Source of the DNA: Lysobacterales bacterium
GTDB taxonomy: Bacteria; Pseudomonadota; Gammaproteobacteria; Xanthomonadales; SZUA-5
Length of the DNA stretch: 64,000 nucleotides
Assembly (NCBI GenBank): GCA_050250665.1
Contig: JBFWOF010000007.1
Location: forward strand, 32,112-96,111
Direction of reading: 5' to 3'
Part shown: positions 22,003-37,617 of the stretch, piece after piece
Position numbering within the stretch: position 1 is the stretch's first letter
Layout: every line of letters starts with the position of its first letter
Notes under the pieces: generated by a model
What the model was told of the DNA's origin: nothing
The model's database searches: none
What the model saw: the letters and a program-made list of their open reading frames with translations, nothing else
Made by a program: the position numbers and the translations under genes

Positions 22003-22205
22003 CTGTGTTTCCCCCAGAAATGGATGGTCAATCCCGGTCGCCACTATCGTTCCGACGATCAGGATTCGCAAGTGTTCCTGACGACCCTCTCTACAACTAT
22101 CACGTTCTGGTTGCTAGCGGCTCGGCTTCAGGCTGGTTATCTTAGGCGACAATCCGCCGGTTCCGCGGCGGCCCAAATCTCGAAGAACTCGGGGGAGGAA
22201 CAGGC

Positions 22206-24197
22206 ATGACTTACTTCGTTACGGGCGCCACCGGCTTTCTGGGTCGATTCCTGATCGGGAATCTGCTCAAGCGCAAGGGCACGATTCATGTGCTGGTCCG
22301 GCGTGGCTCCAAGGAGAAGTTCGAGGCCTTGCAGGCCAGATACCCGGAAGCCGGGGATCGTCTGGTGGCCGTCACTGGCGATCTGACCAAGGCCAAACTC
22401 GGTCTGAGTGCCCAGGCGCAGTCGCAGCTGAAGGGCAAGATCAAGCACTTCTTCCATCTCGCAGCCATCTATGACCTGTCGGCCAGTGCCGAATCGCAGC
22501 AGGCGGCAAACATCGACGGTACCCGCAATGCGGTGCAGCTGGCCGAGGCAGTAGGAGCAGGTTGCTTCCATCACGTCAGTTCGATTGCGGCCGCGGGCCT
22601 GTATTCGGGTGTGTTCCGCGAAGACATGTTCGACGAAGCAGAGAACCTGGATCACCCCTATTTCCGCACCAAGCATGATTCCGAAGGCATCGTCCGCAAG
22701 GAATGCAAGCGTCCCTTCCGCATCTACCGGCCGGGCATGGTCGTTGGTCATTCCCAGACTGGTGAGATCGACAAGATCGACGGCCCCTACTACTTCTTCA
22801 CCCTGCTCAAGCGCATGCGTGAGCTGTTGCCGCCGTGGATGCCCTTGCTGGGCATGGAAGGCGGACGCATCAACCTGGTGCCGGTGGATTTCGTGGTCAA
22901 CGCCATGGACCACATCGCCCATGAGAAAGGCTACGACGGCGGCTGCTTTCACCTCACTGATCCGGCGCCGCGCCGGGTCGGCGAGGTGCTGAACAGCTTC
23001 GCCTATGCCGGACATGCGCCGGAAATGACCATGCGCATCGACGCCCGCATCTTCCAGATCATCCCGGCCTCCATCCGCGGGGCGATCGGCATGCTGCCGC
23101 CGGTGCGACGGATCATGGGGCACGTGCTCAAGAGCCTGAACATTCCGGCCGATGTCCTGAAGTTCTTCAATTATCCGACCCGTTTCGACAGTCGCGAAAC
23201 CGAGCGCGCGCTCAAGGGCTCCGGCATCAAGGTGCCCGATCTCGACACCTACGCCTGGCGCCTCTGGGATTATTGGGAGCGCCACCTCGACCCCGATCTG
23301 TTCGTCGATCGCTCGCTGTCCAGCCGGGTCAAGGACAAGGTGGTCCTGATCACCGGTGGCTCCTCGGGCATCGGCCTGGCGACCGCCAGGAAGGTGGCTG
23401 CCGCCGGCGCACGCACGCTGATCTGTGCGCGCGGACTGGAAGATCTGGAAAAGGCCAAGGCCGAGATCGAGGCCGAGACCAAGAACGCCAAGGTGTTCAT
23501 CTATCAGGTGGATCTGGCGGAGTTGTCGTCAGCGGACGATCTGGTCAAGAAGGTCACTGCCGAGCATGGCGCGGTTGACGTGCTGATCAACAACGCCGGT
23601 CGTTCGATCCGGCGATCGATCGAACTGTCCTACGACCGCTTCCACGACTTCGAGCGCACCATGCAGCTGAACTATTTCGGTTCACTGCGGCTGGTCATGG
23701 GCTTTCTGCCGGGCATGACCGAGCGCCGCAAGGGCCATGTGATCAACATCAGCTCGATTGGCGTGCTCACCAACGCGCCGCGCTTCTCGGCCTACGTGGC
23801 CAGCAAGGCCGCGCTGGATGCCTTCTCGCGCTGCGCCGCCAGCGAGTTCTCCGACAAGAACATCCACTTCACGATCATCAACATGCCCTTGGTGAAGACG
23901 CCGATGATTGGCCCCACCAAGATCTACGACAACGTGCCTACGTTGACCCCTGACGAGGCTGCTGACATGGTCGTGCGCGGCATCATCGAGCGGCCGCATC
24001 GATTGGCGACACGGATGGGCATCTTCGCGGAAATGCTGCATCTGATGGCGCCCAAGGTCTATCAGGTGGTGCTCAACACCGCTTTCCAGCTGTTCCCGGA
24101 TTCCGCCGCTGCCAAGGGCGTGAAGGGCGGCCAGGAAGCACCGCCGTCGAGCGAGCAGGTGGCTTTCGCATCGCTGATGCGGGGCGTGCACTGGTAG
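22206..24197 (+). CDS. two-domain fatty acyl-CoA/aldehyde reductase (NAD(P)-binding reductase domain + SDR domain)
   Basis: N-terminal VTGATGFLG Rossmann. Second domain ITGGSSGIG with YVASK (YxxxK). At 663 aa the architecture matches the ~661-aa Marinobacter fatty alcohol-forming reductase (from memory). Confidence 0.8.
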   Translation: MTYFVTGATGFLGRFLIGNLLKRKGTIHVLVRRGSKEKFEALQARYPEAGDRLVAVTGDLTKAKLGLSAQAQSQLKGKIKHFFHLAAIYDLSASAESQQAANIDGTRNAVQLAEAVGAGCFHHVSSIAAAGLYSGVFREDMFDEAENLDHPYFRTKHDSEGIVRKECKRPFRIYRPGMVVGHSQTGEIDKIDGPYYFFTLLKRMRELLPPWMPLLGMEGGRINLVPVDFVVNAMDHIAHEKGYDGGCFHLTDPAPRRVGEVLNSFAYAGHAPEMTMRIDARIFQIIPASIRGAIGMLPPVRRIMGHVLKSLNIPADVLKFFNYPTRFDSRETERALKGSGIKVPDLDTYAWRLWDYWERHLDPDLFVDRSLSSRVKDKVVLITGGSSGIGLATARKVAAAGARTLICARGLEDLEKAKAEIEAETKNAKVFIYQVDLAELSSADDLVKKVTAEHGAVDVLINNAGRSIRRSIELSYDRFHDFERTMQLNYFGSLRLVMGFLPGMTERRKGHVINISSIGVLTNAPRFSAYVASKAALDAFSRCAASEFSDKNIHFTIINMPLVKTPMIGPTKIYDNVPTLTPDEAADMVVRGIIERPHRLATRMGIFAEMLHLMAPKVYQVVLNTAFQLFPDSAAAKGVKGGQEAPPSSEQVAFASLMRGVHW

Positions 24198-24223
24198 TCT
24201 GCCGAGCGGCATTGCTGCAAACG

Positions 24224-24251
24224 AAAAAGGCGCCCTCAGGGGCGCCTTTTT
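24224..24251. terminator. rho-independent terminator (bidirectional A/T flanks)
   Basis: AAAAA-GGCGCCC-tcag-GGGCGCC-TTTTT, 27 nt after the reductase stop. Confidence 0.8.
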
Positions 24252-24708
24252 CGTTCTTGGCCCGGTCATGGTCAAGCGCAGTTGATTGACGGGTCCATAC
24301 GAGTCGACTGTTTCGGCCCGAAACTGCGGCGGCTTGCAGGTCGCGACGCGAGGCCGCTCCAGTGTGTAGCCCGTTGTGCCGAGCAGCGGCTCAGCGGGGC
24401 TTTTTCGCGTCACCGCCCGCAGAGCGCTGCGCGCACTTCGGGCTACGCAGAGCCGCTTTGCCACAGTCTCGTAAATTCAACAACTTACGATGCCGGTTGA
24501 TGGAAAGCCAACGGTGTCGGCCTGCCGCAGAAGCTCGCCCGTCAGTCTCGGTAGCGAGTTGCGAATGGGCGCCTCAAAAAAGGTGCCCGCCAGCCGGCCG
24601 GTCGGGGAGGGCGATCGGCAAAAAACGTTGGCTGGCGGACATGGAAACGGGGGCGCATCCTTGCGCCAAAGGTCGGCGAGTGGCTCGCCGACCTGATATC
24701 AGCCTGAA

Positions 24709-25404
24709 TCAGGCCGCCGGCTTGGTTTCCGCAGCCGCGACCACGGCTTCGGTGGTCTTCGGCGCAGCAGCCTTCTTCGGCGCCGCAGCCTTCGGCGCAG
24801 CAGCCTTCTTCGGCGCAGCAGCCTTCGGAGCAGCGGCCTTCTTCGGGGCAGCAGCCTTCGGAGCGGCGGCCTTCGGAGCAGCCTTCTTCGGCGCTGCAGC
24901 CTTCGGAGCAGCAGCCTTCGGAGCAGCAGCCTTCGGAGCAGCAGCCTTCTTCGGCGTTGCGGCGCGGTTGCCCGCATCCAGCGAACGCACGGCCTTGCTC
25001 AGCTCGTCAACGCGCTTGGCCAGCTCTTCCAGCTCTTCGCGACCCGGAATGCCGAGAGTGCCCAGAGCCTTGGAGACGCGATTCTCGAACACCTGTTCGA
25101 GGCGGTCCCAAGTGTCAGAGGCTCGTTCCTTGACCTGTGTAACGGTGGTTTCGACCATGCCGCGCACTTCCTCAACTTTGTTGCCGGTCAGCTTGCGCGT
25201 CGCTTTCTCAAGCACTGCGCCTTCCTTGACCAGCGTCTCGTAGAACTTGCCGCTCTGCTCCTGTGCCTTGGAGAAAGCACCCAAGCCTGCCAGCCAGATC
25301 TGCTCGGCCTGTTCCATGACGGCCTTGGCGGTGTTCTTCAGCGTGTTCTCGCTGGCGGAATCCTTGGCCTTGGCCTTGAATTTGGTACCTTTGGAAGTTT
25401 TCAT
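24709..25404 (-). CDS. PhaF-like granule-associated protein (phasin domain + AAPK histone-H1-like tail)
   Basis: N-terminal IWLAGLGAFSKAQE, mid LGIPGREELEELAKRVDELSKAV, then ~69 aa of AAAPK/AAAPKK repeats. Confidence 0.8.
   Translation of the reverse strand: MKTSKGTKFKAKAKDSASENTLKNTAKAVMEQAEQIWLAGLGAFSKAQEQSGKFYETLVKEGAVLEKATRKLTGNKVEEVRGMVETTVTQVKERASDTWDRLEQVFENRVSKALGTLGIPGREELEELAKRVDELSKAVRSLDAGNRAATPKKAAAPKAAAPKAAAPKAAAPKKAAPKAAAPKAAAPKKAAAPKAAAPKKAAAPKAAAPKKAAAPKTTEAVVAAAETKPAA
24757..24963 (-). repeat. tandem 15/18-bp coding repeats (AAAPK / AAAPKK)
   Basis: Direct reading: GCAGCCTTCGG / GCAGCCTTCTTCGG periodicity on the + strand. Confidence 0.85.
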
Positions 25405-25532
25405 CTTGACCCTCTGCTCGTTCCAGCCTCGCCCCGCTTCGCCAGGTGCGAAGCGCAGGAATGTGGAGGCATGGTGCGGCCCGGGGCTAGAATATTCACA
25501 CTATGCAAAGCCTATTCGACGCGGTTTTTCGG

Positions 25533-26855
25533 TCAATATGGGCTTGCATTCTCAGGGAATTGTTCGATAGGGGCCGATTTGCGACGTGAGTTGGAAGGGC
25601 GCTTGCGGCCTTCCTGCAGACGCCGGGTTCGCTGCAGTGCTCGATCAAGTTCATTCAGCGATCGGTCCAGCCGTGACAGCAAGGTCGAGTTCGGCGGCCT
25701 GGTGCCTTCCAGACCATCCCAAACCGTGCGCTCGGTATCTTCGAGTATGTCGTCGCGCAGACTCAACCCATGCCGTTCCAGCACCGGCTGCAGCTGCTCG
25801 CGGCGCAGCCGCAGATCGGCCAGCGTGGTGGCATAGGCGTGTTCGCACAGTCGGCGGCGACTGCTGAAACTGAAGACGTTGGTGAAGAACATCTCGGCGT
25901 CGTCCAGATCCGGCTGGAACAGCACCAGATCGGAATGATCGTAAGCCTTGTCATATTTGCCGAAGCCGACCCGCATGCGTGAATAGAGCATGGCCCGGAT
26001 GGTTTGCGAGATGACCCTGGGAAAACCGCCATCCACGAGGCTGGCCGGAGGTTCATCGCCACGGTCGCGCATGCGCGAGGCATCAAAGGGTACCAACGGA
26101 TTCAATGCCAGCAGCAGGTCGATATCCTCATCCAGCGCGATCGAGGCGTGCAGCGTGCGTTGCAGGGCGCCGTCGACGTAGTAGCGGCCATTGATTTCCA
26201 CTGGCGGATAGAAGCCCGGCAGTGCCGAACTGGCCTGGACGGCCTTGGATATCGGCACGGTGTTGTCGGTGCCTGTGCCAAAGCGCACGGCGTGGCCGGT
26301 GTCGATGTCCACGGCCACCACATACAGCGGCCGATCCAGCTTGCGGAAATCGTTGCTGCGGCCGGGCGCATTGAAGATGCCGCTGAGGTAGCGCTCGATG
26401 CCCTCATTGTCGAACAGACCGGTGGGAATCGCCGCGCCTAGCCGGCCCAATGACTCACTCCACCGAACCGAACGTGGATGCAGGGCCAGATCGACCAGCC
26501 AGTCGGCCAGGATTCCCGGCACGGCGCTCAGGCGCTTGATGTATTCGTAGAAAGCCGGCTTCAGGAAGTGTTCCGGACGGAACTGATGCTCGGGCGATTC
26601 CTCGGTGATGAACATGCGGCACATTTCCGCCGAATCGACCCGGTTGGCGAGGCCAGCCGCCAGAAACGCGCCCGAGCTCACGCCCACGTAAACGTCCAGC
26701 CGGGTCAGGTCCAGCCCGTCTATGGCCTCGTCCAGCGCCCGCAGGGCGCCCATTTCGTAGATGCCACCGATCGGGCCGCCGCCGGCAACCGCCAGTCCGA
26801 TCCGGTGCGGGGTGTTCAGTGAACGGGTTCGACGAGCTTCCTGCAAATGCAGCAT
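25533..26855 (-). CDS. patatin-like phospholipase/lipase
   Basis: Oxyanion AGGGPIGG, nucleophile elbow GVSSGA, catalytic DGAL; 440 aa. Confidence 0.85.
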   Translation of the reverse strand: MLHLQEARRTRSLNTPHRIGLAVAGGGPIGGIYEMGALRALDEAIDGLDLTRLDVYVGVSSGAFLAAGLANRVDSAEMCRMFITEESPEHQFRPEHFLKPAFYEYIKRLSAVPGILADWLVDLALHPRSVRWSESLGRLGAAIPTGLFDNEGIERYLSGIFNAPGRSNDFRKLDRPLYVVAVDIDTGHAVRFGTGTDNTVPISKAVQASSALPGFYPPVEINGRYYVDGALQRTLHASIALDEDIDLLLALNPLVPFDASRMRDRGDEPPASLVDGGFPRVISQTIRAMLYSRMRVGFGKYDKAYDHSDLVLFQPDLDDAEMFFTNVFSFSSRRRLCEHAYATTLADLRLRREQLQPVLERHGLSLRDDILEDTERTVWDGLEGTRPPNSTLLSRLDRSLNELDRALQRTRRLQEGRKRPSNSRRKSAPIEQFPENASPY

Positions 26856-26929
26856 TCTGGGGCATCCCTGATTCTGATCGCGCCCGATTGTAGTCTCGCT
26901 GGCTTTGACAGTTCGCTCGGCATGCGCGC

Positions 26930-27955
26930 TTGTTTACCTTCTTCATGCTGCGGCAGTGGAGTGTGCGATCTATTGCGCTGGCGCAAACTATGTCCATGAA
27001 CGATCGAGAATTTTTGCCGCCACAGGCACATCGCCCCACCCTGAAGTGGGCTCTTGTTGCGGTCTGGCTGGCGCAGCTGGCGCTGCTGGTGTGGGTGGCG
27101 CTGGCGCTGCGTGCCCAGGGGTGGACCTGGCTTGGCGCCGCGTCGAGCGTCGTCCTGGTCTGGTTGCTGCTGCAGGGATTGCTGCTGGCCTTCCCCTATG
27201 TGCTGAAGTGGCGACTGGGCGATTGGTCGCGGGAGATCCGGGGATCGCTGCGGCAGATGCTGCGCACGTTGAGTGTCGAAGCAGGCTGGATGACACGCTT
27301 CTATCTGATCGAACATCCGTGGCGAGGTGCGCCGATGCAGCTGCAGCCCGCGGATCAGCGCCTGCCGCTGCTGCTGGTGCACGGATTTCTCTGCAATGGT
27401 GCGGTCTGGAATCCGCTGGCGGCTGACCTTCGGGCTGCGGGGCGCAGTTTCGCCAGCGTGTCCCTGGAGCCGAGCTACCGGGATTTCCAGCAACAGCTGC
27501 GTGATCTCGATGCCGCGGTGTCCATGTGGCTGGCCGCCACCGGCGTATCACGATTGATCCTGATCGGGCACAGCATGGGCGGACTGCTGGCGCGAGCGTA
27601 CGCCGATCGCGATCCGCAACGCTGCGCGGCGGTGATCTGCGTAGCGGCACCGCATCATGGCACCTATCTCGGCGACTGGTTCCACGGATTGGAAGGCGGT
27701 CCGCCTTCGCCCCGTTGCCGGTGGCTGCAGGAGTACAACGCCCGCAGCCAGGAGCGGATTGCGGTGCCGGCCTTGAATCTGTGGAGTGCTGACGACAGTA
27801 TCGTGTTGCCGGCTGCCAGCGCGCAGCTCGCGGCGACGCCCGAGCAGGCTCTGCATGGCCATGGTCATATGGCACTGGTGGCGGCGCCCGCAGCCCGTGC
27901 CCTGTTGATGCGTACACTGGGCGAACTTGAATCCGGCCTGGAGGGCTCATCGTGA
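26930..27955 (+). CDS. membrane-anchored alpha/beta-hydrolase (lipase/esterase-like)
   Basis: Two N-terminal TM helices, LLLVHGFLCNG, nucleophile elbow GHSMGG. Start 26930 or ATG 26990. Confidence 0.75.
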   Translation: MFTFFMLRQWSVRSIALAQTMSMNDREFLPPQAHRPTLKWALVAVWLAQLALLVWVALALRAQGWTWLGAASSVVLVWLLLQGLLLAFPYVLKWRLGDWSREIRGSLRQMLRTLSVEAGWMTRFYLIEHPWRGAPMQLQPADQRLPLLLVHGFLCNGAVWNPLAADLRAAGRSFASVSLEPSYRDFQQQLRDLDAAVSMWLAATGVSRLILIGHSMGGLLARAYADRDPQRCAAVICVAAPHHGTYLGDWFHGLEGGPPSPRCRWLQEYNARSQERIAVPALNLWSADDSIVLPAASAQLAATPEQALHGHGHMALVAAPAARALLMRTLGELESGLEGSS

Positions 27956-28001
27956 CGCGAATCGGGAATCCATCGACGTCCACAGACAAGGTCAAGTCCA
28001 T

Positions 28002-28739
28002 ATGAGTGCCATCGGTGAACGCCTGCGCGCCCTGCTGAACCGATTGCAGCAGCAGCACCAGCGATCTGGCGCCGATGCCGACGTCGCCCGGCGTCTGGCG
28101 GCACTGCGGGCCTGGCAATCGCGACGGCTGGCCGCCAGCTACGCCGATATCCGCCAGCAACCCCGATTTGCGGCAGCCTGCGAGTTCTTTCTGGCCGATC
28201 TCTATGGAGAGGGTGATTTTGCCGACCGTGACCGGGCCGTGGAGCGGGTGGTGCCGATCATGATGCGATTGCTGCCCGAAGGTGTGCTCGCCAGTCTGGC
28301 ACGTGCGATCGAGCTCAATGCGCTCAGTCAGGAGCTCGATTACGGCATGGCTGCGGCTCTGCCCGGACATTGCACGCACGCCGATGCCATCACCGATGTC
28401 GATTACGCCGCCGCCTACGCGCTGTCAGCCGAACGTCAGGCCCGCCGTCGGCAACTGGCCCTGCTGCTGGTGCTGGGGCGTGAACTCGACCGGCTGGTGC
28501 GCAAGCCAATGCTGTCCGAATTACTGCACCTGTGCCGCTGGCCGGCGCGGATGGCGGGCCTCGGCGCGTTGCAGAGTTTTCTCGAGCGCGGCTTCGATGC
28601 CTTTGGCAAGCTCGGCGGTGCCAATGTGTTTCTGGGTACGATCCTGCTGCGCGAGCGCGCCTTCATGCGTGCCGTCGACCGCGTGCTCGACGGCAATGCC
28701 CAGTTGCGACTTCAGGATCCGAATTCCTGGTCCAGGTAG
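28002..28739 (+). CDS. hypothetical protein with FFLADLY motif (possibly the family named for an FFLEELY motif; from memory, unverified)
   Basis: 245 aa, helical, motif ACEFFLADLYGEGDF. Start placed at ATG 28002. Confidence 0.45.
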   Translation: MSAIGERLRALLNRLQQQHQRSGADADVARRLAALRAWQSRRLAASYADIRQQPRFAAACEFFLADLYGEGDFADRDRAVERVVPIMMRLLPEGVLASLARAIELNALSQELDYGMAAALPGHCTHADAITDVDYAAAYALSAERQARRRQLALLLVLGRELDRLVRKPMLSELLHLCRWPARMAGLGALQSFLERGFDAFGKLGGANVFLGTILLRERAFMRAVDRVLDGNAQLRLQDPNSWSR

Positions 28740-28990
28740 CGCCCGATTTCCTGCTCGATGGCCGACTTGATCGGCAGCAACAGCCAGCTGATGTTCGCGT
28801 GCACTGACACCGAATCGGCCTCCACCGCGATCTCGCCATCCACGCCCACGCGCGAGAACTCCAGCGTGTTGCGATTCCAGCGGGCGTCGATCTCGAACTT
28901 GTCCCGAATGTGCTTGGCGACCTTGTCGACCGCCTTCTTGGCCTTGGTGACACCCAGTTCGTGCTGTCGATGCATGCGTATAGTGGCCAT
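28712..28990 (-). CDS. small polyhydroxyalkanoic-acid-system protein (PHA_gran_rgn type)
   Basis: 92 aa. Pattern H.LG...AK.AVDKVA..I...F.I...W..N.L.F.R.GV.G.I.V ... IEQEI..YLD matches that family as I remember it. Confidence 0.65.
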   Translation of the reverse strand: MATIRMHRQHELGVTKAKKAVDKVAKHIRDKFEIDARWNRNTLEFSRVGVDGEIAVEADSVSVHANISWLLLPIKSAIEQEIGRYLDQEFGS

Positions 28991-29029
28991 ATCGAGCCCT
29001 CCCTTGCCCGGATCAGGTCAGGGTTGATT

Positions 29030-29821
29030 ATGATGAAAGCCAAGTCCCGTGGGGAGCATTCTGTGCGCATCTGTCTCGCCGTGTGGTTGCTGGGAGTCTC
29101 ATTGCCGCTTCTGGCACAGGAACAGCCGCGTTCGCAGCCCGCTGCGGCGGCCCCCAGAGTCCAATCTGAGCCCGCGGCTCCTGCCGCTGCAAGGCCGGCG
29201 GAAGCTGCAACGATGAAGCTGCACGGCCAGCTGCTCCTGAGCAGTGGCGGGCGACCGCTGCGCAGCGAAGAAGCCCAGGATGCGGTTGTCTACTTTCGAC
29301 CGGATTCGCCGGTAGCGCCGGTGGTGCCGACAACACCTTTCGTCATTGCCACCGAGCGCAAGACCTTCGTGCCCAGAGTCTTGCCGATACCGGTCGGTGC
29401 CAGCGTGCGTTTTCCGAACAACGATCCAATTCTGCACAACGTCTTTTCCAGCACCCGCGAGGCCGCCTTCGACCTCGGCCTGTACGGGCGCAGCGAGGGC
29501 GAGAGCTATCACTTCACCCAGCCGGGGGTGATTCGGGTGTTCTGCAATGTGCATCACGCCATGGTGGCCCATGTGCTGGTGCTCGATACGCCATTCTTCA
29601 CCAAGCCCGACGCCCAGGGCAGATTCAATCTGAAAGGAATTCCTCCCGGCCCCGGTGAACTGTTCGTGTGGCATGAACGGGCCCAGCTCTGGCGGAGTAA
29701 GATCAGTGCTGGCACAGATGACGAGGTCAAGGTGCAGCTGGAGCTGAGCAAGCGGCGGGTGCCGCCGCATCTCAACAAGACCGGCCAGCCCTACCGGAGG
29801 ACAAGGCCTGATGAGTACTGA
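29030..29821 (+). CDS. periplasmic cupredoxin-fold-like protein
   Basis: Signal peptide (LAVWLLGVSLPLLAQE). VRFPNNDPILHNVFS ... VFCNVHHAMVAHVLV resembles plastocyanin-like / methylamine-utilisation-annotated proteins. 11-nt overlap with the next gene. Confidence 0.55.
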   Translation: MMKAKSRGEHSVRICLAVWLLGVSLPLLAQEQPRSQPAAAAPRVQSEPAAPAAARPAEAATMKLHGQLLLSSGGRPLRSEEAQDAVVYFRPDSPVAPVVPTTPFVIATERKTFVPRVLPIPVGASVRFPNNDPILHNVFSSTREAAFDLGLYGRSEGESYHFTQPGVIRVFCNVHHAMVAHVLVLDTPFFTKPDAQGRFNLKGIPPGPGELFVWHERAQLWRSKISAGTDDEVKVQLELSKRRVPPHLNKTGQPYRRTRPDEY

Positions 29822-32600
29822 ACGCGGATTCAGGCTGCCCCTGGCTGCTCGTATCTTCTTTGCGAGCGGCTTCATGGTGGCTCTTGCCGTGGCGCTGGCG
29901 GCGCTGGTGACGCTGCAGTATGGCCGTCGCGCGGGAGAGGACGCGGTTGACCACAGTCTGGAAGCGGCCAACAACGCCCAGGAACGGTTCGAGGCGCTGT
30001 CCTTCCAGAAGCTCGACATCGTGGCCAAGACGATCATCAACGATGCCAGCTTCGTGCGCTATGTGGCGACCGCCACGGTGGGCAGCAGCGGCCTGAACGA
30101 GCTCGGCATCGCCTCACCGCCGGACGTGCCAGTGGCGGCGGCGACCGAGCCCGATGAATCAGGGAGTTCCGAGCAATCCGCCAGTCTGCCAGCCCCGGAG
30201 CCGGATGCCGACAGCGCTTCGGTCAAGGATCTGCTGACTCAGTTTGGCGAAAGTTACGACTTCAGCTTCGGGATGGTGCTGGATGCTGACGGTCGGGTGG
30301 TCGCCCGCACGGACGAACGCGAGGCCTTCGCCGATGATCTTTCCGACGATCCCATGTTCGGCAACATGATCAAGGACATCGTCGGAGTGACCGGATACTG
30401 GCGCAATGGCCTGGCTTTGCTGCAGGTGTCGGCGCAGCCAATGGTGATGCAGGATGAACTGGTCGGATTTCTGGTCATCGGCGTGCCGGTGGATGCCGGC
30501 GTGGTCAAGCAGGTGCGCGAAGTCAGCGGTGGCGAAGTCGCCTTCTGGGTCATGGATCAGGACAAGCTGCGCCTGATAGCCACGTCGGTGGATGAATCTG
30601 CTGCGGCTCTGCTGAAGGAATCGATCTCCAGGATCGAACCCAATCTGCTCGAAAGTCTGCAGGCCGGCCGCTCGCTGGCGCGGGTGCGTGATCTCTCTCT
30701 GGGGAGCACCACCCTGGCAGCCAGTCTGGCGCCGCTGTTCGGTCAGCCTGGGGACGCCGTGGGTGGCGTGATCACCATGACCTCCATCGACACGGCCATG
30801 GCGCCTTTCCAGTCCATCCGCAACGCCGTGCTGCTGGGTGGACTGATCGCGCTGCTGTTGTCGCTGGCGGTGTCCTGGTGGCTGGCTCGCAGGGTGTTGC
30901 GGCCGGTCTCCGAATTGATTGAGGCCGCTGAACAGGCGGCTGGCGGCAACTATCACCAGCAGTTGACCATCGAAGGCAATGACGAAGTGGCCAGACTCGG
31001 ACGGGCCTTCGACTCGCTGCTCAGCGATCTGCGTGAGAAGAAGGACATCGAAGGATACGTCGGCCATCTGTCGCGTTTCCTGCCCGATCCAGGTTCCGAG
31101 GCGCAGCTTTTGCCGGCGGCGCCGGCGCCCAAACCAGTCACCAGACGCGAATGCGCACTGGTGGGTCTGGAGCTTCGACGTTTCCTGCGCGCGCCACCCA
31201 AGGGTGAGGAAGCGATCACCTTGACCGCGCTCGGTCAGTTGATCGAAGAAGCGGTTGCCCGTGCCCAGGCCGCTGGTGGCGAGCTGCTGGAGCAGGAAGG
31301 TCCCAGACTGCTGTTCGGATTCGGTGGTGAGTCGTCCGAACTGCGGGCGCTGGCGGCGGTCAGCGCCTGGTGGGAAGGACGCATCGGTACCAGCGACAAT
31401 GGCGCGGCGGTGGCGCTGGCACTGGGCGAGATCGTGCACGGATCGTTGCCGGCTCGGCCGGAATCAAGCGCCACCATCGGCTTGCCGGTGCTGCAGGTCG
31501 AGCGTCTGCTGGCGGAGACGCCGGTGGGTCAGATGCTGCTGTCGCCGGCCTTCGGCGAGCGCATCAAGAGCATCGGTCAGACCGGCGTGTTGCGCGCCGC
31601 GCAGGGGCAGAGCAGCGGCAAGCGCTTCCTGTCGATCGATCGTCCCAGTCTGAGCGCAGTGGCGCGGCTGGCTCCTGGCCTGTCCCAGGCCACGGTGATG
31701 ATGGGGGCAGAGGGTGCCGCTACCCAGGTCGCCGGTGCTGCTGCTCCGGCAGCATCCGACCAGGCTTCGACCCGGCTGGCGCTGGGGATGCGCTTCGCCG
31801 GTCGTTACGAGATTCTGGCGATACTCGGCGCCGGTGGCATGGGCATGGTCTACAAGGCGCGCGACACCGACCTGTCCGATGTGGTGGCGCTGAAGATGCT
31901 GCGCCCGGGGATGGTCATCGATGCCGAGCAACTGGAGGGACTCAAGGTCGAGCTCAAGCTGGCGCGCAAGATCACCCACCCCAATGTGCTGCGCACCTAC
32001 GATTTCGGCGAATTCCAGGGCGTACCCTACATTTCGATGGAATATGTGCGCGGCCTGACCCTGCGTTACCTGCTGCAGCAGGCCGGCAGATTGCCGTTCT
32101 CGGCAGCCTTGCGGATCGCCCGGCAGCTGTGCATGGGCCTGGATGCCGCGCATCAGATGGGCGTGATCCATCGCGACATCAAGCCGGAGAACATCATCAT
32201 CGAGCAGAGCGGCAACGCCAAGCTGATGGACTTCGGCATCGCCCGCTCTGCCGGACGCTCGGATTCCAGGCATACCCAGCCGGGTACCTTCCTGGGTACG
32301 CCCAACTATGCCTCGCCCGAACAGCTCTCGGGTTCGGATCTGGATCAACGTACCGACATCTATTCCACCGGCGTCATGTTGTGCGAAATGTTCTGCGGCA
32401 AGTTGCCCTTCACCGGTAGCAATACCATGGAACTCTATGTAGCCCATCTGCAACAGGCACCGATCAAGCCCTCCGAGTTGTGGCCCGATATTCCGCGGGC
32501 TCTGGAAGAGGTCATTCTCAAATGCCTGGAGAAAAAGCCCGATGATCGATACGCTTCGTCGGCGGATCTGCTGGTGGCGTTGTCCGGACTGCGGGCCTGA
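29811..32600 (+). CDS. transmembrane sensor Ser/Thr protein kinase (periplasmic sensor, HAMP, degenerate cyclase-homology-like domain, STK)
   Basis: TM helix, ~300-aa periplasmic region, second TM, HAMP (LRPVSELIEAAEQAAGGNYHQQL...DEVARLGRAFDSL). A CHD-like stretch lacks the metal Asp (ALVGLELRRF). Kinase motifs GAGGMGMVYKA, VALK, HRDIKPEN, DFGIAR are present. Confidence 0.85.
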   Translation: MSTERGFRLPLAARIFFASGFMVALAVALAALVTLQYGRRAGEDAVDHSLEAANNAQERFEALSFQKLDIVAKTIINDASFVRYVATATVGSSGLNELGIASPPDVPVAAATEPDESGSSEQSASLPAPEPDADSASVKDLLTQFGESYDFSFGMVLDADGRVVARTDEREAFADDLSDDPMFGNMIKDIVGVTGYWRNGLALLQVSAQPMVMQDELVGFLVIGVPVDAGVVKQVREVSGGEVAFWVMDQDKLRLIATSVDESAAALLKESISRIEPNLLESLQAGRSLARVRDLSLGSTTLAASLAPLFGQPGDAVGGVITMTSIDTAMAPFQSIRNAVLLGGLIALLLSLAVSWWLARRVLRPVSELIEAAEQAAGGNYHQQLTIEGNDEVARLGRAFDSLLSDLREKKDIEGYVGHLSRFLPDPGSEAQLLPAAPAPKPVTRRECALVGLELRRFLRAPPKGEEAITLTALGQLIEEAVARAQAAGGELLEQEGPRLLFGFGGESSELRALAAVSAWWEGRIGTSDNGAAVALALGEIVHGSLPARPESSATIGLPVLQVERLLAETPVGQMLLSPAFGERIKSIGQTGVLRAAQGQSSGKRFLSIDRPSLSAVARLAPGLSQATVMMGAEGAATQVAGAAAPAASDQASTRLALGMRFAGRYEILAILGAGGMGMVYKARDTDLSDVVALKMLRPGMVIDAEQLEGLKVELKLARKITHPNVLRTYDFGEFQGVPYISMEYVRGLTLRYLLQQAGRLPFSAALRIARQLCMGLDAAHQMGVIHRDIKPENIIIEQSGNAKLMDFGIARSAGRSDSRHTQPGTFLGTPNYASPEQLSGSDLDQRTDIYSTGVMLCEMFCGKLPFTGSNTMELYVAHLQQAPIKPSELWPDIPRALEEVILKCLEKKPDDRYASSADLLVALSGLRA

Positions 32601-32611
32601 GGGGGACACAG

Positions 32612-33706
32612 ATGCTGAATTCGAGCGTGGGCGCCATCGCACTGGGCATTGCTCTGGCCGGTGCGGCGTTGACGGCATCGGCGCAGTCGACGGCGGATGA
32701 GGATGTACAGGCGCCGTCTTCGGCCCTGTTCGACTGGTACGGTGATCTGCGCGTGCGCGGCGAACGCACCATCGACATTCCCGGCCGCGCTGATGATCTC
32801 GAACGCCTGCGCGCCTCGCTGCGCTTTGGCGGACGCTATATCAGCGACAGCGGCTGGGAGTTCGCCGCCGCGGCGAAGCTGGGCGCCGGTACCGACAGCA
32901 ATGACGATACCCGCCGCAATCTGGACAACGAACAGTCCAACGGCGCCGGCCTTGATGAGCTGTACGCGTCCTACAGTGCAGGCGAGAACACCTTGTTCAG
33001 GCTGGGCAAGGGGCGCATGCCGCTGGTGCTGACACCGCTGACCTGGGATCGCGATCTGCGGCCTGTCGGCGCCAGCGTCGAGTATTCGGCCTCGGTGCGC
33101 GATTTCGACGCCTTCCATCTGACCGCCGGATATTTCGCTGGCGATCACCTCTACGGCGATGAGTCGCGCATCGGTGCGCTGCAGGTCGGTTACGGCTGGC
33201 TCGAAGGCGGCGAAAGCGGATTCAGCACCTTTCTGACTTACCTGGATTTCACCGACATCGACGTGCTGGCGCGCGAGGGCCTCGGACGCACCAATCGCCG
33301 CATCGGCAATCGCTTCGTCAGCGACTACCGATTGCTGGACCTGCAGTTCATCGGCCGGGTGCAGGCCTTCGAATCGCCGCTGGTGGCTCGCCTCGATCTG
33401 GTCCGAAATCTTGGTGCGGATGACCAGCGCGATGGCGCCCGCTTCAGCCTGATCTGGGGTGATGCGGATCAGCTTGGTGGTTGGGAATTGGGCTACGCCT
33501 TCCAGCGCGCCGGGCGCGACGCCGTGCTCGCCGCCTATTCCGAAGACGACTGGTGGTTCCACAGTTTTGCGCGCGGTTCGATGCCCTGGGTGGCCTATGG
33601 CTTCAGTGAGCGTCTGACCTTGCAGGCCTCGGCTTTCATCGAACGGCGCGACGGAGTCAGCGACTATACCGATCGCTGGCTGCTCGACCTGCGCTCACGC
33701 TGGTAG
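32612..33706 (+). CDS. outer-membrane beta-barrel porin-like protein (alginate-export-like)
   Basis: Signal peptide ending TASAQS, alternating beta-strand pattern, LDELYASYS...FRLGKGRMP, C-terminal ...LDLRSRW. Confidence 0.6.
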   Translation: MLNSSVGAIALGIALAGAALTASAQSTADEDVQAPSSALFDWYGDLRVRGERTIDIPGRADDLERLRASLRFGGRYISDSGWEFAAAAKLGAGTDSNDDTRRNLDNEQSNGAGLDELYASYSAGENTLFRLGKGRMPLVLTPLTWDRDLRPVGASVEYSASVRDFDAFHLTAGYFAGDHLYGDESRIGALQVGYGWLEGGESGFSTFLTYLDFTDIDVLAREGLGRTNRRIGNRFVSDYRLLDLQFIGRVQAFESPLVARLDLVRNLGADDQRDGARFSLIWGDADQLGGWELGYAFQRAGRDAVLAAYSEDDWWFHSFARGSMPWVAYGFSERLTLQASAFIERRDGVSDYTDRWLLDLRSRW

Positions 33707-33747
33707 TCTTCGCCCATGACCTTTCTACAGAGCCCCTGACGCAGCCG

Positions 33748-34599
33748 ATGAAGATCAGCTTTCCCGGCGGAGAGAGACAGGACTTCCAGGCTTCGGAAGG
33801 CGTGTTGCGCGTGGGCTCGGCGGCCGACAACGACATCGTGCTGCCCGCCGCCAAACAGGTGCTGCCGCACCATCTGGAACTGCGGGTCGAGCCCCGACGG
33901 GGCATCACCCTCAGCGTCAGCGACCCCAAGGCCTCGGTGCACGTCAATGGCCGGCCGGTGCGCGAGAAAGCCATTCTCAGGCTCGGTGACATGGTCGGCG
34001 CTGGCGATGTACGCATGGTCATGCGTCCCGATCAGGACCGCACCGAGAAGCCGCCCAAGCCCGCCTCCGACAACGAAACCCGACAGCGCCACACACCACC
34101 CCGTGTGGTGCTGCGCGGTGTGTCCGGCGGCTACTTCGGCAAGGTCATCCCGCTGCGCTCCAAGACCGTGATCGGGCGCGGTAGTGACTGTGATCTGGTC
34201 TTGAACGAGCCGGAAATGAGCCGTCGCCACGCAATCATCGAGAACACGCCCGAAGGGCTGTTCCTGCGCGATCTGGCGTCGGCCAATGGCACCTTCGTCA
34301 ACGGCACTTCGGTACGCGACACCGTGCTCAAGCCGGGCGATCAGCTGGCTTTCGACCAGAATCGATTCCTGATCGAGGCCCCGGGTTATCTGCTGCAGAT
34401 GCCGGGCGACGAGCCGATCAATGTCGGTCAGATCACCCAGGTGCAGCGACCGCTGGTGATACCCCCGGCAGCGAGCGTCAAGGTCGGCGAAGAGGATGGT
34501 GAGAACAGTGCGGTCGACTGGATCATCATGACCGCCGCTGTGGTCACCTTGCTGGCGCTGGCATTGCTGGTCTATCTGGAGTTCGGGCGCGCCGTCTGA
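33748..34599 (+). CDS. double FHA-domain protein with C-terminal TM anchor
   Basis: FHA 1 (LRVGSAADNDIVL ... VHVNGRPV). FHA 2 (IGRGSDCDLVLNEPEMSRRHA ... LASANGTFVNG). C-terminal helix WIIMTAAVVTLLALALLVYL. Confidence 0.85.
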   Translation: MKISFPGGERQDFQASEGVLRVGSAADNDIVLPAAKQVLPHHLELRVEPRRGITLSVSDPKASVHVNGRPVREKAILRLGDMVGAGDVRMVMRPDQDRTEKPPKPASDNETRQRHTPPRVVLRGVSGGYFGKVIPLRSKTVIGRGSDCDLVLNEPEMSRRHAIIENTPEGLFLRDLASANGTFVNGTSVRDTVLKPGDQLAFDQNRFLIEAPGYLLQMPGDEPINVGQITQVQRPLVIPPAASVKVGEEDGENSAVDWIIMTAAVVTLLALALLVYLEFGRAV

Positions 34600-34889
34600 G
34601 CATCGACGCGGTAGCTGCGCTCAACCCGGGTGATCTCGACCCGATACCAGCGATACCACTGCTCTCGACCGCGCTGCTGGGCCTGCAGATGCTCAGGGTG
34701 CGCGCGCCAGCGTGCCACGGTGTCCAGATCAGGCCAGTAGGAGAGCGCTATTTCCTCACTGCCTTCGGTCAATGCATGGAACTCCAGACAGCCGAAGTCA
34801 GTCAGCGCCAGCTGCCGCATCCTTGCCGCCGTGGCAGTGTATTCAGCATCCAGCTGCTTGATTCCGGCGCGAAAGACCACGAGATACAT
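34572..34889 (-). CDS. antibiotic-biosynthesis-monooxygenase (ABM) domain protein
   Basis: 105 aa with ferredoxin-like ABM pattern (YLVVFRA ... ALSYWPDLDTVARWRAHPEH). Confidence 0.7.
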   Translation of the reverse strand: MYLVVFRAGIKQLDAEYTATAARMRQLALTDFGCLEFHALTEGSEEIALSYWPDLDTVARWRAHPEHLQAQQRGREQWYRWYRVEITRVERSYRVDAQTARPNSR

Positions 34890-34921
34890 TGCCCGCTCCC
34901 CAGAGCCACCGGCCCTGAACT

Positions 34922-35794
34922 TTGGAAGACCCGATCATGCCTGCAGTGACGCTGATCCAGCAGCCCGACAGACTGCAGATGGCTGCTTTCGAAGGCTATG
35001 TGCGGCAGGTGTTCCCGCGAGCCAGCTTTGCCGCGTGGATGGCCTGGGGCGAGTGGAACGAGGACTATCGCGCGCTGGCGCTGATGGCTGGCGCCGAGAT
35101 CATTGCCAACGTGTCGCTGACCCGCATGCAACTGCTGCTTGACGGAAACATGGTGCCAGCCTGGCAATTGGGTGCAGTGGGCGTGCTTCCGCAATGGCGC
35201 GGCCAGGGACTGTCGCGGCAGCTGATGGAGGCCGCGCTGTCGCTGACCGCCAATGATCCGGTATTGCTGTTTGCCAACGACAAGGTTCGCGACTTCTATC
35301 CACGCTTCGGCTTTGCGCCTTGTCCGACGGCGACCTTCGTTGCCGAATACGCCTGCGATCCGGGTCAGCACCCGGCACCAGCGCTTCCGACCGAAGCTGC
35401 CACCACGCGCGCGCTGATCCACGATCTGGCCGAATCGGGTTTGGCCAGCACCAGGCGCTTTGGTGCGCGCGGATACGGACGGACACTGACCTGGTATCTG
35501 GCCAATCGATGGGTGCCCGATCCCAGGCAACTGGATTCGCACACGCTGGTGTTCTGCCGGACCGATGGAGATTGTCTGGTCATCGACGACATTCTCTCGG
35601 CGAAGCCCTTCGATCTCGACGCAGCGCTGCCGCGACTGATCAGCTCACCCATCCGCCGCATTCGTTTTGGCTTCACGCCGGAGCTTTGCTGGCCACGGGC
35701 CTGCACCATCGGCACGGACGACGACGCTCATCTCTTTGTCAGAGGATTCATGCCGGAAACGCCACAACGCTTCCCGGTTCTGGCGCGGACCTAG
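34922..35794 (+). CDS. GNAT-family N-acetyltransferase
   Basis: Acetyl-CoA motif LGAVGVLPQWRGQGLSRQLMEAAL ... FYPRFGF. Start 34922 or ATG 34937. Confidence 0.75.
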   Translation: MEDPIMPAVTLIQQPDRLQMAAFEGYVRQVFPRASFAAWMAWGEWNEDYRALALMAGAEIIANVSLTRMQLLLDGNMVPAWQLGAVGVLPQWRGQGLSRQLMEAALSLTANDPVLLFANDKVRDFYPRFGFAPCPTATFVAEYACDPGQHPAPALPTEAATTRALIHDLAESGLASTRRFGARGYGRTLTWYLANRWVPDPRQLDSHTLVFCRTDGDCLVIDDILSAKPFDLDAALPRLISSPIRRIRFGFTPELCWPRACTIGTDDDAHLFVRGFMPETPQRFPVLART

Positions 35795-36289
35795 CTAGGC
35801 CCAGTCGCGATCGCTGCAGCGGCTGTGGCCCTGACGGAGCGCCTGCTGCAGCGCGTGATGGGCGCGCCTGAGCAGCCGGTTCGACTCCAGTTCGTCGCCG
35901 CTGCCGGTGGCCATGCCGATCCTGGCGCCTGCCTGCACCGGGGTACCACCCAGCTGTATCGGCTCCTTCAGCGCTTCGAGCATGCGATCCGCCAGACGAT
36001 GGGCGGCGAAGGGGTTCTGCATGTATTCGGCAATGATCAGCCATGTCGAATCCTTGAGCCGATCCACCCGATCGCTGCGCCGCGCGCAGCGGCGTACACG
36101 TTCCGCGAAAGCCTGCAGTGCCTGCTCGCTGGCTTCATCACCGAGGGTGGCACGAACCCGCTCCGCTTCGCTGAAGTCCACGCAGAGCAGCGCCAGCGTG
36201 ACCGAATGAGCGCGCGCCCGATTCACGGCATCATTCAGATGCGCGCGCAGCGTTTCCTGCGCGGCCAGTGCCGGTACGGGATCGAGCAT
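35795..36289 (-). CDS. stand-alone degenerate GGDEF-like domain protein
   Basis: LALLCVDFSEAERV ... ALQAFAERVRRCARRSDRVDRLKDSTWLII follows the GGDEF fold pattern, but the GG[DE]EF site is replaced (LKDSTW). Start ATG 36289 or 36331. Confidence 0.5.
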   Translation of the reverse strand: MLDPVPALAAQETLRAHLNDAVNRARAHSVTLALLCVDFSEAERVRATLGDEASEQALQAFAERVRRCARRSDRVDRLKDSTWLIIAEYMQNPFAAHRLADRMLEALKEPIQLGGTPVQAGARIGMATGSGDELESNRLLRRAHHALQQALRQGHSRCSDRDWA

Positions 36290-36456
36290 GCTGGATTGGC
36301 AGATCGGTGAATTGAACACGGGCGACAACATTCCGGTTTTCGCAACGGTGGCGCAGGATAGCAATCTGCGGCACTGGCGGGGCGCAAGCCGGAATGGCGA
36401 TGTGCGACTCAGTCGGCGCCGCCCGGAACCCGTGATTGAGATGCAAGGTACTGCCC

Positions 36457-37617
36457 ATGCTGACTGCTCTGGCCATCGCCAACTATCGCTCGCTGCGCGA
36501 TCTGACACTGCCACTGCAGCCCTTGACGGTGATTGCCGGTGCCAATGGCAGCGGCAAGTCCAATCTCTATCGGGCGCTGCGCCTGCTCGCGGAGACTGCG
36601 CAGGGCAATGTCGTGGGTGCTCTGGCGCGTGAAGGCGGACTGGCGTCGACGTTCTGGGCTGGGCCGGAGCGCTTCAGCCGCGGTATGCGCTCCGGCGAGG
36701 TGCCGGTGCAGGGCGGCCCACGGCAGCAGCGTCAGCGCCTGTTGCTGGGCTTCGCTTCAGAGGACTTTGGCTATGCCATCGACCTTGGCATACCTCCAGC
36801 CGGGGTCAGCGCCTTCAATCTGGATCCGGAGATCAAGCTCGAGTGTCTGTGGGCCGGACCGCTGCTGCGCAGCGCCAGTGTGCTGGTCGAGCGTCGGGTC
36901 CGATTGATCCGCGCCCGTGCCGGCCGCGACTGGCGGGTGCTTGACGCGCATGTGCCGAGCTACGAGAGCATGCTGTCGCGGGCTTTTGATCCGCAGGCCG
37001 CACCGGAATTGCTGGCACTGCGCGAACGTCTGCGCAACTGGCGCTTCTACGATCATTTCCGCACCGATCCGGAAGCGCCCGCGCGGCAGAGTCAGCTCGG
37101 TACGCGCACGCCGGCGCTGGCACATGACGGAAGAGACCTGGCGGCTGCGCTGCAGACCATTCGCGAAATCGGTGACGCGCGGGCGCTGCATGCGGCCATC
37201 GAAGACGCCTTCCCGGGTGCCGAGCTGGGCTTGCATGCAGAGCAAGGTCGCTTTCAGGTCAGCCTGAAGCAATCCGGATTGCTGCGAGCACTGGGTGCCG
37301 CCGAACTCTCCGACGGCACGTTGCGCTATCTGCTGTGGATCGCCGCGCTGTTGACGCCGCGGCCACCTCCGCTGATGGTGCTGAACGAACCCGAGACCAG
37401 TCTGCACCCGGATCTGCTGCCGGCACTGGGTCGGCTGATCGCCGATGCCGCCACCCGTACCCAGGTCTGGGTGATCTCCCATAGCCCCAGACTGATCGCC
37501 GCGCTGGAACGCAGCGCCGGCTGCGCCACCCTGACCCTGGACAAGGAACTCGGCGAAACCCGTGTGGCCGGACAGGATCTGCTGGAGGTGCCAGCCTGGC
37601 GCTGGCCGGAGCGCTAG
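36457..37617 (+). CDS. AAA/ABC-type ATPase (AAA_21 / RecF-like predicted ATPase)
   Basis: Walker A GANGSGKSN, signature-like LSDGTLRYL, Walker B LMVLNEPETSLHP. Start at ATG 36457. Confidence 0.8.
   Translation: MLTALAIANYRSLRDLTLPLQPLTVIAGANGSGKSNLYRALRLLAETAQGNVVGALAREGGLASTFWAGPERFSRGMRSGEVPVQGGPRQQRQRLLLGFASEDFGYAIDLGIPPAGVSAFNLDPEIKLECLWAGPLLRSASVLVERRVRLIRARAGRDWRVLDAHVPSYESMLSRAFDPQAAPELLALRERLRNWRFYDHFRTDPEAPARQSQLGTRTPALAHDGRDLAAALQTIREIGDARALHAAIEDAFPGAELGLHAEQGRFQVSLKQSGLLRALGAAELSDGTLRYLLWIAALLTPRPPPLMVLNEPETSLHPDLLPALGRLIADAATRTQVWVISHSPRLIAALERSAGCATLTLDKELGETRVAGQDLLEVPAWRWPER

Follow-up and report, generated by a model that had tools for sequence, protein, structure and literature searches.

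A cupredoxin-type protein encoded with a double-Cache-like, HAMP-containing receptor Ser/Thr kinase that carries a predicted pseudo-cyclase, at a candidate signaling operon of Lysobacterales

The H1 type VI secretion system of Pseudomonas aeruginosa has a threonine-phosphorylation pathway, TagQRST-PpkA-Fha1-PppA, in which outer-membrane and periplasmic parts act on a transmembrane Hanks kinase, and the resulting phosphothreonine is read by an FHA protein. The YfiBNR (TpbB) system likewise comprises an outer-membrane protein, a redox-sensitive periplasmic partner, and an inner-membrane HAMP transducer with a periplasmic sensor. Two further kinds of receptor are of interest here for their domain architecture, namely the HAMP-adenylyl cyclases, such as the mycobacterial Rv3645 and Rv1319c, and the animal receptor guanylyl cyclases, such as GC-A. 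To our knowledge, the input has been identified for very few receptor Ser/Thr kinases of bacteria. Here we analyze a 64,000-nucleotide stretch of DNA from a Lysobacterales bacterium (assembly GCA_050250665.1, contig JBFWOF010000007.1), hereafter called the window, in which four consecutive genes at positions 29030-34599, designated g1 to g4, encode a secreted cupredoxin-type protein, a transmembrane receptor Ser/Thr kinase, a putative outer-membrane porin and an FHA protein, respectively. Our preferred reading, which we hold tentatively and at a little less than an even chance, is that this region constitutes one operon for a receptor Ser/Thr-kinase pathway, of which g1 and the double-Cache receptor g2 would be the obligate sensory core.

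The open reading frame (ORF) calls agreed with a preliminary description of this locus in that the four genes lie on the same strand and are tightly packed; g1 and g2 overlap by 11 nucleotides (nt), and gaps of 11 nt and 41 nt separate g2 from g3 and g3 from g4, respectively. The longest ORF of g1 opens at a GTG at 28910, but its signal peptide comes from the ATG at 29030; a GGGGGA ribosome-binding site lies 5' of g3, and the GC content of third codon positions is high across all four genes (0.72-0.81). A 100% identical copy of the g2 kinase is on record in a Lysobacterales metagenome-assembled genome, and no NCBIfam model was found to be specific for any of g1-g4. All four domain assignments of the preliminary description were upheld, including its guess of a cupredoxin and of a degenerate cyclase between HAMP and kinase, and the predicted locations of the products in the outer membrane, the periplasm, the inner membrane and at its cytoplasmic face fit the trans-envelope arrangement that it had proposed.

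Compared with the TagQRST-PpkA-Fha1-PppA pathway, the sensor of g2 is of the Cache/HAMP kind and not of the von Willebrand A type; the periplasmic partner is a cupredoxin, the predicted outer-membrane part is a beta-barrel porin instead of a lipoprotein, and g4 is a small adaptor with two FHA domains and a tail anchor. Among the scanned window ORFs there were no type VI secretion genes, no PppA phosphatase and no TagR/TagQ homologues, and the TagH model TIGR03354 matched only the FHA domain of g4 (42.9 bits against a cutoff of 120); the likeness is one of logic only, in which this pathway and YfiBNR are the nearest of the known systems. There is also no sequence relationship to YfiBNR; g1 is a cupredoxin and not a YfiR/DUF4154 protein, and g2 would act through Ser/Thr phosphorylation. 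A YfiR-associated kinase model of NCBIfam was matched by the HAMP region of g2 alone. The GGDEF-EAL-linked sister cassettes, presented below, are closer still to YfiBNR in output.

Conservation of the gene set was determined by a one-genome-per-species scan, which yielded 194 confirmed relatives of the HAMP-to-kinase segment of g2; 80 of these loci were then analyzed by ORF search with g1-g4. Cultured carriers include Dokdonella immobilis, Tahibacter soli, Tahibacter sp. UC22_41 and Chiayiivirga flava. A g1 gene was found immediately upstream of the kinase gene in 74/74 loci having upstream sequence, in Lysobacterales and Acidobacteriota alike, and it usually overlapped the kinase start. Of the Lysobacterales loci, 60 had sequence beyond the kinase, and every one of them contained the g3 porin, which was found in none of the 15 Acidobacteriota loci, and 45 of the 60 porin-bearing loci had a g4-type FHA gene. 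Dokdonella and others are without this gene, and nothing consistent replaces it there. The conserved core is g1 plus g2, a pair that is invariant and translationally coupled, with the porin and the FHA protein as lineage-limited accessories. A fixed quartet, as implied by the preliminary description, could not be sustained, as only the cupredoxin and the kinase are invariant, the porin is confined to Lysobacterales, about one quarter of the porin loci lack the g4-type gene, and one locus, L088, has the FHA gene without the porin. The dedicated pathway from outer membrane through periplasm to inner membrane that it had inferred is supported in part; operon-like packing and the occurrence of FHA genes near the kinase in two phyla speak for it, and the lack of a fixed four-gene unit speaks against it.

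The Acidobacteriota offer an instructive variant of the locus. The gene order in Thermoanaerobaculia is an outer-membrane-like protein of ~455 amino acids (aa), g1, kinase, GAF-HD-GYP and FHA-GAF-adenylyl cyclase, the domain calls having been verified by Pfam in L077. The outer-membrane-like family occurs in 11 of these loci, and GAF-HD-GYP lies directly downstream of the kinase in 10; the catalytic residues of the FHA-GAF-adenylyl cyclase are intact in L077, and weak FHA matches were obtained at that position in nine Acidobacteriota loci. In L077 (4829-13642) the outer-membrane-like protein is ~470 aa long, and an AAA_21 ATPase follows the cyclase gene. Other arrangements were seen within Lysobacterales. 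In a Rudaea-type locus (L036, 11682-16606) and in Tahibacter (L050, 11641-16632), the FHA gene is followed first by genes for two conserved proteins without Pfam matches (~250 and 310-376 aa) and then by one for a protein of five PAS domains and GGDEF-EAL (~1000-1190 aa); these two proteins and the PAS-GGDEF-EAL protein are absent from the window.

These distributions bear on the possibility that g1-g4 are neighbors rather than one pathway, such that g1 would be an electron-transfer cupredoxin, g3 a general porin, and g4 the reader of some other kinase (e.g., that encoded at 55925-58462), all held together by inherited synteny. Indeed, the unrelated flanks, comprising a patatin, an alpha/beta hydrolase and a 270-aa protein without a Pfam match, are also conserved in Lysobacterales, g4 is missing from a quarter of the loci, and a second kinase is present in the window. 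Because of this flanking synteny, the adjacency of g3 and g4 is weaker functional evidence than the cross-phylum pairing of g1 with g2. The latter, however, is maintained in different phyla, with different output domains and even on the plasmids of unrelated proteobacteria, and the two genes physically overlap; moreover, the g3 family, small as it is (348 matches), travels with the kinase, and in Acidobacteriota FHA proteins are again, and independently, found next to the kinase. We regard this possibility as very improbable.

In the g1 protein, a signal peptide and a Pro/Ala-rich linker precede the cupredoxin domain, which has an immunoglobulin-like (CarboxypepD_reg-like) part, and the C-terminal tail is conserved. 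The single sequence produced only sub-threshold Pfam matches, to Copper-bind (PF00127, 16.6 against a cutoff of 21.2) and to CarboxypepD_reg. The family profile, when compared with the PDB, matched type-1 copper domains with E values down to 6e-6, including the cupredoxin domains of nitrite reductases, a Nitrosopumilus blue-copper protein, plastocyanins and amicyanins, and a His and the C-x2-H-x2-M loop of g1 aligned with the copper ligands of these solved domains. The AlphaFold2 model, with a predicted local distance difference test (pLDDT) score of 84.6, displayed the Greek-key cupredoxin fold, and its top Foldseek match was amicyanin 1id2 (E = 3e-7; target-normalized TM-score 0.72), a protein with identical C-x2-H-x2-M spacing. 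The four putative ligands, H136, C172, H175 and M178, are invariant in a 48-sequence g1 alignment, and these positions are at least 95% conserved in 75 locus-derived sequences, Acidobacteria included. Relatives of g1 bear the source names "plastocyanin", "cupredoxin domain-containing" and "methylamine utilization protein". Profile, structure prediction and invariant ligands thus agree on the plastocyanin-like nature that had been suggested for the first gene, and g1 is a cupredoxin, putatively of the type-1 copper kind, with a predicted fold closest to amicyanin.

With amicyanin, plastocyanin and pseudoazurin, g1 shares the fold and the His...Cys-x2-His-x2-Met set, the loop spacing being that of amicyanin. 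It differs from them by the extra immunoglobulin-like part and the conserved tail, by being encoded with signal transducers and not with redox enzymes, and by Pfam and NCBIfam scores that fall under the family thresholds. The tail, which reads PPHLNKFGKPY in the window, is the area where the pLDDT of the model drops to 54-73, and it is probably flexible. It is to be noted that the tail occurs in all kinase-linked g1 proteins, including the partners of kinases that have no pseudo-cyclase, but that the GGDEF-EAL-linked relatives do not have it; a docking function is possible.

In g2, two transmembrane helices flank a periplasmic, double-Cache-like sensor, which contains a low-complexity and poorly conserved insert at residues ~95-135. 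In g2 itself, the Pfam matches of this region to CHASE4 (E = 0.018) and to dCache_1 (E = 0.064) were weak; dCache_3 (PF14827) was matched by many g2 homologs and also by the GGDEF-EAL proteins that share a g1-type partner. The signaling helix that follows HAMP, with the motif SDLREKxDxEGYVxxLSRFLPD, has a mean column identity of 88%, the highest outside the kinase domain, and the motif is retained in kinases without the pseudo-cyclase. The search with g2 retrieved ~110 full-length family members, from Lysobacterales/Rhodanobacteraceae and Acidobacteriota, and residues were counted on 103 of them. The kinase domain is intact in its VALK, HRD and DFG motifs, as the preliminary description had read it (VALK, HRDIKPEN, DFG); the VALK Lys, the HRD Arg and the DFG Asp are each found in 103/103 members, and Thr822 of the activation loop in 100/103. 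A conserved Thr followed by hydrophobic residues (e.g., APTVV, ATQV) is present in the linker 25-35 residues before the kinase in most members (31713-31730, residues ~635-640 in g2); the Thr at position 638 was counted in 96/103, and this Thr is a candidate autophosphorylation site.

The Cache-like sensor raises a different explanation, in which the double-Cache domain would bind a diffusible small molecule that enters through the porin, g1 would be a modulator or chaperone in the manner of YfiR or TagR, with its copper-site residues kept for stability only, and the downstream steps would be the same as in the pathway preferred here. In its favor, domains of the Cache and dCache kinds as a rule bind their ligands directly, the kinase is followed by a Porin_5 gene of its own in 60/60 Lysobacterales loci, and the restriction of the g1 tail to kinase-linked forms suggests protein-protein docking rather than electron transfer. 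An irrelevant metal site, on the other hand, would hardly explain four copper ligands that are invariant across phyla and output types, and neither Acidobacteriota nor L088 have the porin. No conserved motif of a ligand pocket was identified, although no search aimed at one was made. We consider this explanation rather unlikely.

Between HAMP and the kinase, Pfam gave no match to the single g2 sequence, PF00211 included. When a 28-sequence alignment of this intervening segment was used as a profile against the PDB, it matched Cya2 (2w01; E = 3e-6), CyaB (3r5g; E = 1e-5) and Ma1120 (E = 3e-3). The AlphaFold2 model of the region (mean pLDDT 85.5, core >90) had the beta-alpha-beta-beta-alpha-beta topology of cyclases and superposed on Cya2, CyaB and Rv1625c; in a Foldseek search of the PDB, the top 50 matches were all class III adenylyl or guanylyl cyclases, with E values from 3e-9 and target-normalized TM-scores of 0.6-0.7. 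Profile and structure are therefore in accord with the cyclase-homology-like stretch without the metal-binding Asp that had been noticed at the outset, and its ALVGLELRRF segment holds the first metal position as Glu (E454). Of the two metal-binding Asp residues, the Asn and the Arg used in class III catalysis, the Arg is the sole survivor, in spite of the clear class III fold, and the substrate-specifying position varies across the family. Judged by these residues, the cyclase-fold domain of g2 is a pseudo-enzyme, predicted to be catalytically dead throughout the family.

The architecture has two partial precedents. The order of a transmembrane sensor, HAMP, a helical transducer and a class III fold is the same in g2 as in the membrane HAMP-adenylyl cyclases, its nearest known counterparts in domain order, from which g2 differs by loss of the catalytic residues and by an active kinase appended C-terminally. 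Animal receptor guanylyl cyclases are likewise single-chain receptors in which a kinase fold and a cyclase fold are combined and one module is dead and regulatory, but here g2 is a mirror image; GC-A has a pseudokinase and an active cyclase, whereas g2 has a pseudo-cyclase and an active kinase, with the domain order reversed and an independent origin. An exhaustive search with residues 1-625 of g2 also retrieved many kinases of 660-760 aa that match in the sensor, HAMP and signaling helix only, and alignment revealed that they run from the signaling helix directly into the kinase, with no pseudo-cyclase. Since the pair of cupredoxin and Cache/HAMP receptor also occurs with such kinases, the pseudo-cyclase is an optional insert and not an essential relay.

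The residues that the pseudo-cyclase has kept might be taken to mean that it still binds a nucleotide (ATP, GTP, a cyclic nucleotide or pyrophosphate) in the degenerate pocket at the dimer interface, which would allow the kinase to integrate cytoplasmic with periplasmic signals. Despite the lost catalysis, R499 and R565 are each conserved in 100/103 members, and an acidic residue, Glu or Asp, occupies position 454 in 101/103; in addition, the kinase of the acidobacterial loci has GAF-HD-GYP and an intact FHA-GAF-adenylyl cyclase as neighbors, and other Lysobacterales loci have PAS-GGDEF-EAL genes downstream. Nonetheless, the sister kinases without the domain keep g1 and the same synteny, making it dispensable for the core pathway, and the substrate-specifying position is variable. 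In our judgment, nucleotide binding here is decidedly unlikely.

The association of g1 with sensors of this kind extends beyond the kinases. When annotated plasmids were searched with g1 by tblastn, five stronger matches were examined (two in Caballeronia, and one each in Burkholderia, Comamonas and Novosphingobium), and in 5/5 of these Beta- and Alphaproteobacterial cases the gene directly downstream of the g1-like gene was annotated as EAL domain-containing; a dCache_3-HAMP-GGDEF-EAL architecture was established by Pfam for three of the five partners. The GGDEF-EAL-linked g1 relatives have kept the four copper ligands and are missing the C-terminal tail. A DUF3034 gene and a group-1 truncated hemoglobin accompany four of the five plasmid cassettes; the DUF3034 protein combines a signal peptide with a beta-barrel-like C-terminus whose last residue is Phe or Tyr, and the hemoglobin bears either a signal peptide or the signal of a lipoprotein. 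The complete four-gene cluster, in the order DUF3034, truncated hemoglobin, g1-like protein and dCache_3-HAMP-GGDEF-EAL, was located in L081 (5547-9866), L083 (5237-9734), L084 (3649-7862) and L087 (3533-7836). The composition of this plasmid cluster, which is found in Caballeronia, Novosphingobium and Burkholderia, suggests a periplasmic sensor of O2, NO or redox state. Our literature search found nothing on a DUF3034/globin/cupredoxin/GGDEF-EAL cluster, and neither the globin nor DUF3034 was found in the window.

Intermediate forms were also encountered. Upstream of four of four pseudo-cyclase-less kinases that were looked up lies a g1 gene whose product has kept both the ligands and the tail. 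In L088, g1 and the kinase are followed by FHA, with the porin absent, and L089 was called as a kinase-porin fusion. A DUF3034-globin pair adjoins g1 and a dCache_3 kinase without pseudo-cyclase in L090 (2-4062) and L091 (43-3385), and these neighbors link the kinase-type and the GGDEF-EAL-type cassettes. In L092, the g1-kinase pair is adjoined by a gene on the minus strand (5595-6128) for a CusF-like copper-binding protein of the periplasm whose tail is rich in His, Asp and Met. Weaker g1 relatives sit among genes for c-type cytochromes or for cbb3 oxidase and SCO. Since the g1 pairing persists with GGDEF-EAL outputs and in kinases that have no pseudo-cyclase, the unit is a sensory cassette of a cupredoxin and a Cache/HAMP receptor, the outputs of which can be exchanged.

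A broader proposition may be derived from this, namely that a blue-copper protein serves as the sensor instead of carrying electrons, its redox state or copper occupancy being read by a double-Cache/HAMP receptor, and that this would be a widespread and unrecognized cassette of Gamma-, Beta- and Alphaproteobacteria and Acidobacteriota. Its output would be either Ser/Thr phosphorylation, in which a pseudo-cyclase relay may or may not take part, or turnover of cyclic di-GMP (c-di-GMP), often in the company of an outer-membrane beta-barrel and, in some lineages, of a secreted truncated hemoglobin. We consider this proposition possible but, as it stands, doubtful. A copper or redox context among relatives, which counts in favor of the preferred pathway, is suggested by the truncated hemoglobins and DUF3034 of the sister cassettes, by the CusF-like neighbor in L092, and by the cytochrome, cbb3 and SCO genes near distant g1 relatives. 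No description of the cassette or of the kinase architecture was found in the literature.

The two accessory proteins of the window were examined by similar means. The match of g3 to Porin_5 (PF16930) scored 16.8 bits against a cutoff of 22, but PF16930 is matched by most of its homologs, and the name "putative porin" is given to some of them. The protein has a signal peptide and ends in a Trp, W364, that is invariant among relatives; both features fit a putative outer-membrane barrel, in line with the beta-barrel protein ending in Trp that the preliminary description had assigned to the third gene. No relative of solved structure was found by sequence with a profile of the g3 family. Comparison by hhalign revealed no relationship of g3 to the outer-membrane-like protein upstream in acidobacterial loci or to DUF3034; the outer-membrane partners of the different lineages are thus analogous and not detectably homologous.

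Pfam identified FHA (PF00498) in g4 with E = 6e-30, in two stretches, and the C-terminal hydrophobic stretch is present in 36/36 aligned relatives. The two FHA domains and the C-terminal transmembrane helix described earlier for the fourth gene were therefore recovered, with the qualification that FHA1 is degenerate and only FHA2 is canonical, having the GR...SRRH...NG residues for phosphothreonine binding. The linker Thr of g2 was considered as a docking site for the FHA protein, but the motif is present in most family members with or without an FHA gene nearby; it does not specifically support such docking and is a weak lead.

Starting from the gene order, folds, residue conservation and co-occurrence documented above, we infer copper binding by g1, its contact with the sensor, the nature of the signal, the targets of phosphorylation and the part played by g3 as follows. 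The copper site of g1 would change state, either by oxidation or by copper occupancy, and the changed g1 would engage the Cache domain of g2 differently. The signal would then cross the membrane and pass through HAMP and the signaling helix to a dimer of the dead cyclase fold, which would be a dimerization or transducer module, possibly an allosteric one in view of the conserved R499, R565 and E454. The pseudo-cyclase would set the activity of the intact Hanks kinase, and the phosphothreonine made by the kinase would be read by FHA proteins, here by the canonical FHA2 of the membrane-anchored g4. In Acidobacteriota, the reader would be the FHA-GAF-adenylyl cyclase, hence the output would be a nucleotide second messenger. 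The g3 porin would be a Lysobacterales-specific accessory that probably admits the signal or copper across the outer membrane, or tethers a periplasmic partner.

Several points weigh against this scheme. Cupredoxins are normally electron carriers and not sensors, and copper binding by g1 is proposed from the conservation of its ligands. The Cache domain might bind a small ligand unaided. About 14 testable Lysobacterales loci have no adjacent FHA gene of any kind, the linker Thr does not specifically support FHA docking, and the flanks of the locus are themselves syntenic in Lysobacterales. No PP2C phosphatase was found in the operon or among those window ORFs, a part of the total, that were scanned. 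Lastly, a promoter and terminator scan of 28600-35000 returned nothing above chance and was uninformative.

The coordinates of all features are collected in Table 1. With regard to the surroundings, the 270-aa protein without a Pfam match is encoded just upstream of g1 (27927-28739, plus strand), and its position is conserved in ~28 Lysobacterales loci; it may be mere synteny or an additional partner. The region 15240-28990 is a lipid-storage neighborhood. Downstream of the operon, at a distance of 1.2-1.8 kb, are genes for a small stand-alone GGDEF protein (35795-36514, minus strand) and an AAA_21/AAA_15 ATPase (36436-37617, plus strand). The ATPase was considered as part of the system because an AAA_21 gene also comes after the acidobacterial module, but the two proteins are only 28% identical and other genes lie in between here, so that the resemblance is probably a coincidence. 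Further away, a gene for an extracytoplasmic function sigma factor of the PF07638 type (54760-55302, minus strand) is divergent from that of the second Ser/Thr kinase (55925-58462, plus strand), the ORF of which probably starts further upstream.

Table 1. Positions of the g1-g4 genes, their domains and residues, and flanking genes in the window; family counts refer to 103 g2 family members.
Feature	Position	Strand	Residues	Description and basis
g1	29030..29821	+	263 aa	Secreted cupredoxin-type protein; ORF call
g1 putative type-1 copper site	29435..29563	+	H136, C172, H175, M178	H136 29435-29437; C172 29543-29545; H175 29552-29554; M178 29561-29563
g1 C-terminal tail motif	29768..29794	+	H247-L-N-K-x-G-x-P-Y255	Nearly invariant in g1 alignments
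g2	29811..32600	+	929 aa	Transmembrane receptor Ser/Thr kinase; ORF and Pfam calls
g2 periplasmic sensor	29916..30818	+	~36-336	Double-Cache-like; two flanking transmembrane helices
g2 HAMP and signaling helix	30879..31088	+	HAMP 357-409	Pfam HAMP E = 8e-13
g2 pseudo-cyclase	31143..31670	+	~445-620	Class III cyclase-homology fold; profile, AlphaFold2, Foldseek
Metal Asp1 position			E454	Family: Glu 93, Asp 8
Metal Asp2 position			P498	Family: Pro, Gln or Ala; never Asp
Gly-after-Asp2 position			R499	Family: Arg 100
Transition-state Asn position			L561	Family: Leu, Tyr or Phe
Transition-state Arg position			R565	Family: Arg 100
g2 Hanks-type Ser/Thr kinase domain	31806..32555	+	666-915	PF00069 E = 1e-54, 186 bits against cutoff 31.7
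g3	32612..33706	+	364 aa	Putative outer-membrane porin, Porin_5 family
g4	33748..34599	+	283 aa	Tail-anchored double-FHA protein
g4 FHA1		+	~18-85	Degenerate, without GR...SRRH...NG
g4 FHA2	34165-34353	+	140-202	Canonical GR...SRRH...NG phosphothreonine-binding residues
g4 C-terminal transmembrane helix	34516-34584	+	~257-279	Hydrophobic stretch
Wax-ester synthase/diacylglycerol acyltransferase	15240-16952			
Fatty acyl reductase fused to short-chain dehydrogenase/reductase	22206-24197			
Probable patatin-like protein	25533-26855	-		Assigned by eye
Alpha/beta hydrolase	26930-27955			
Polyhydroxyalkanoate-granule-region-like gene	28712-28990	-	92 aa	

For the g2 family, the pairing with g1 offers a testable candidate for the input of a bacterial receptor Ser/Thr kinase, namely a metalloprotein partner with a switchable state. 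The natural kinases that have no pseudo-cyclase provide a ready comparison for the contribution of a dead cyclase fold to transmembrane signaling. If the proposed mechanism is true, the cupredoxin and the Cache/HAMP receptor would together constitute a modular device for periplasmic redox or copper sensing, which would be relevant to envelope stress, copper homeostasis and c-di-GMP biology.

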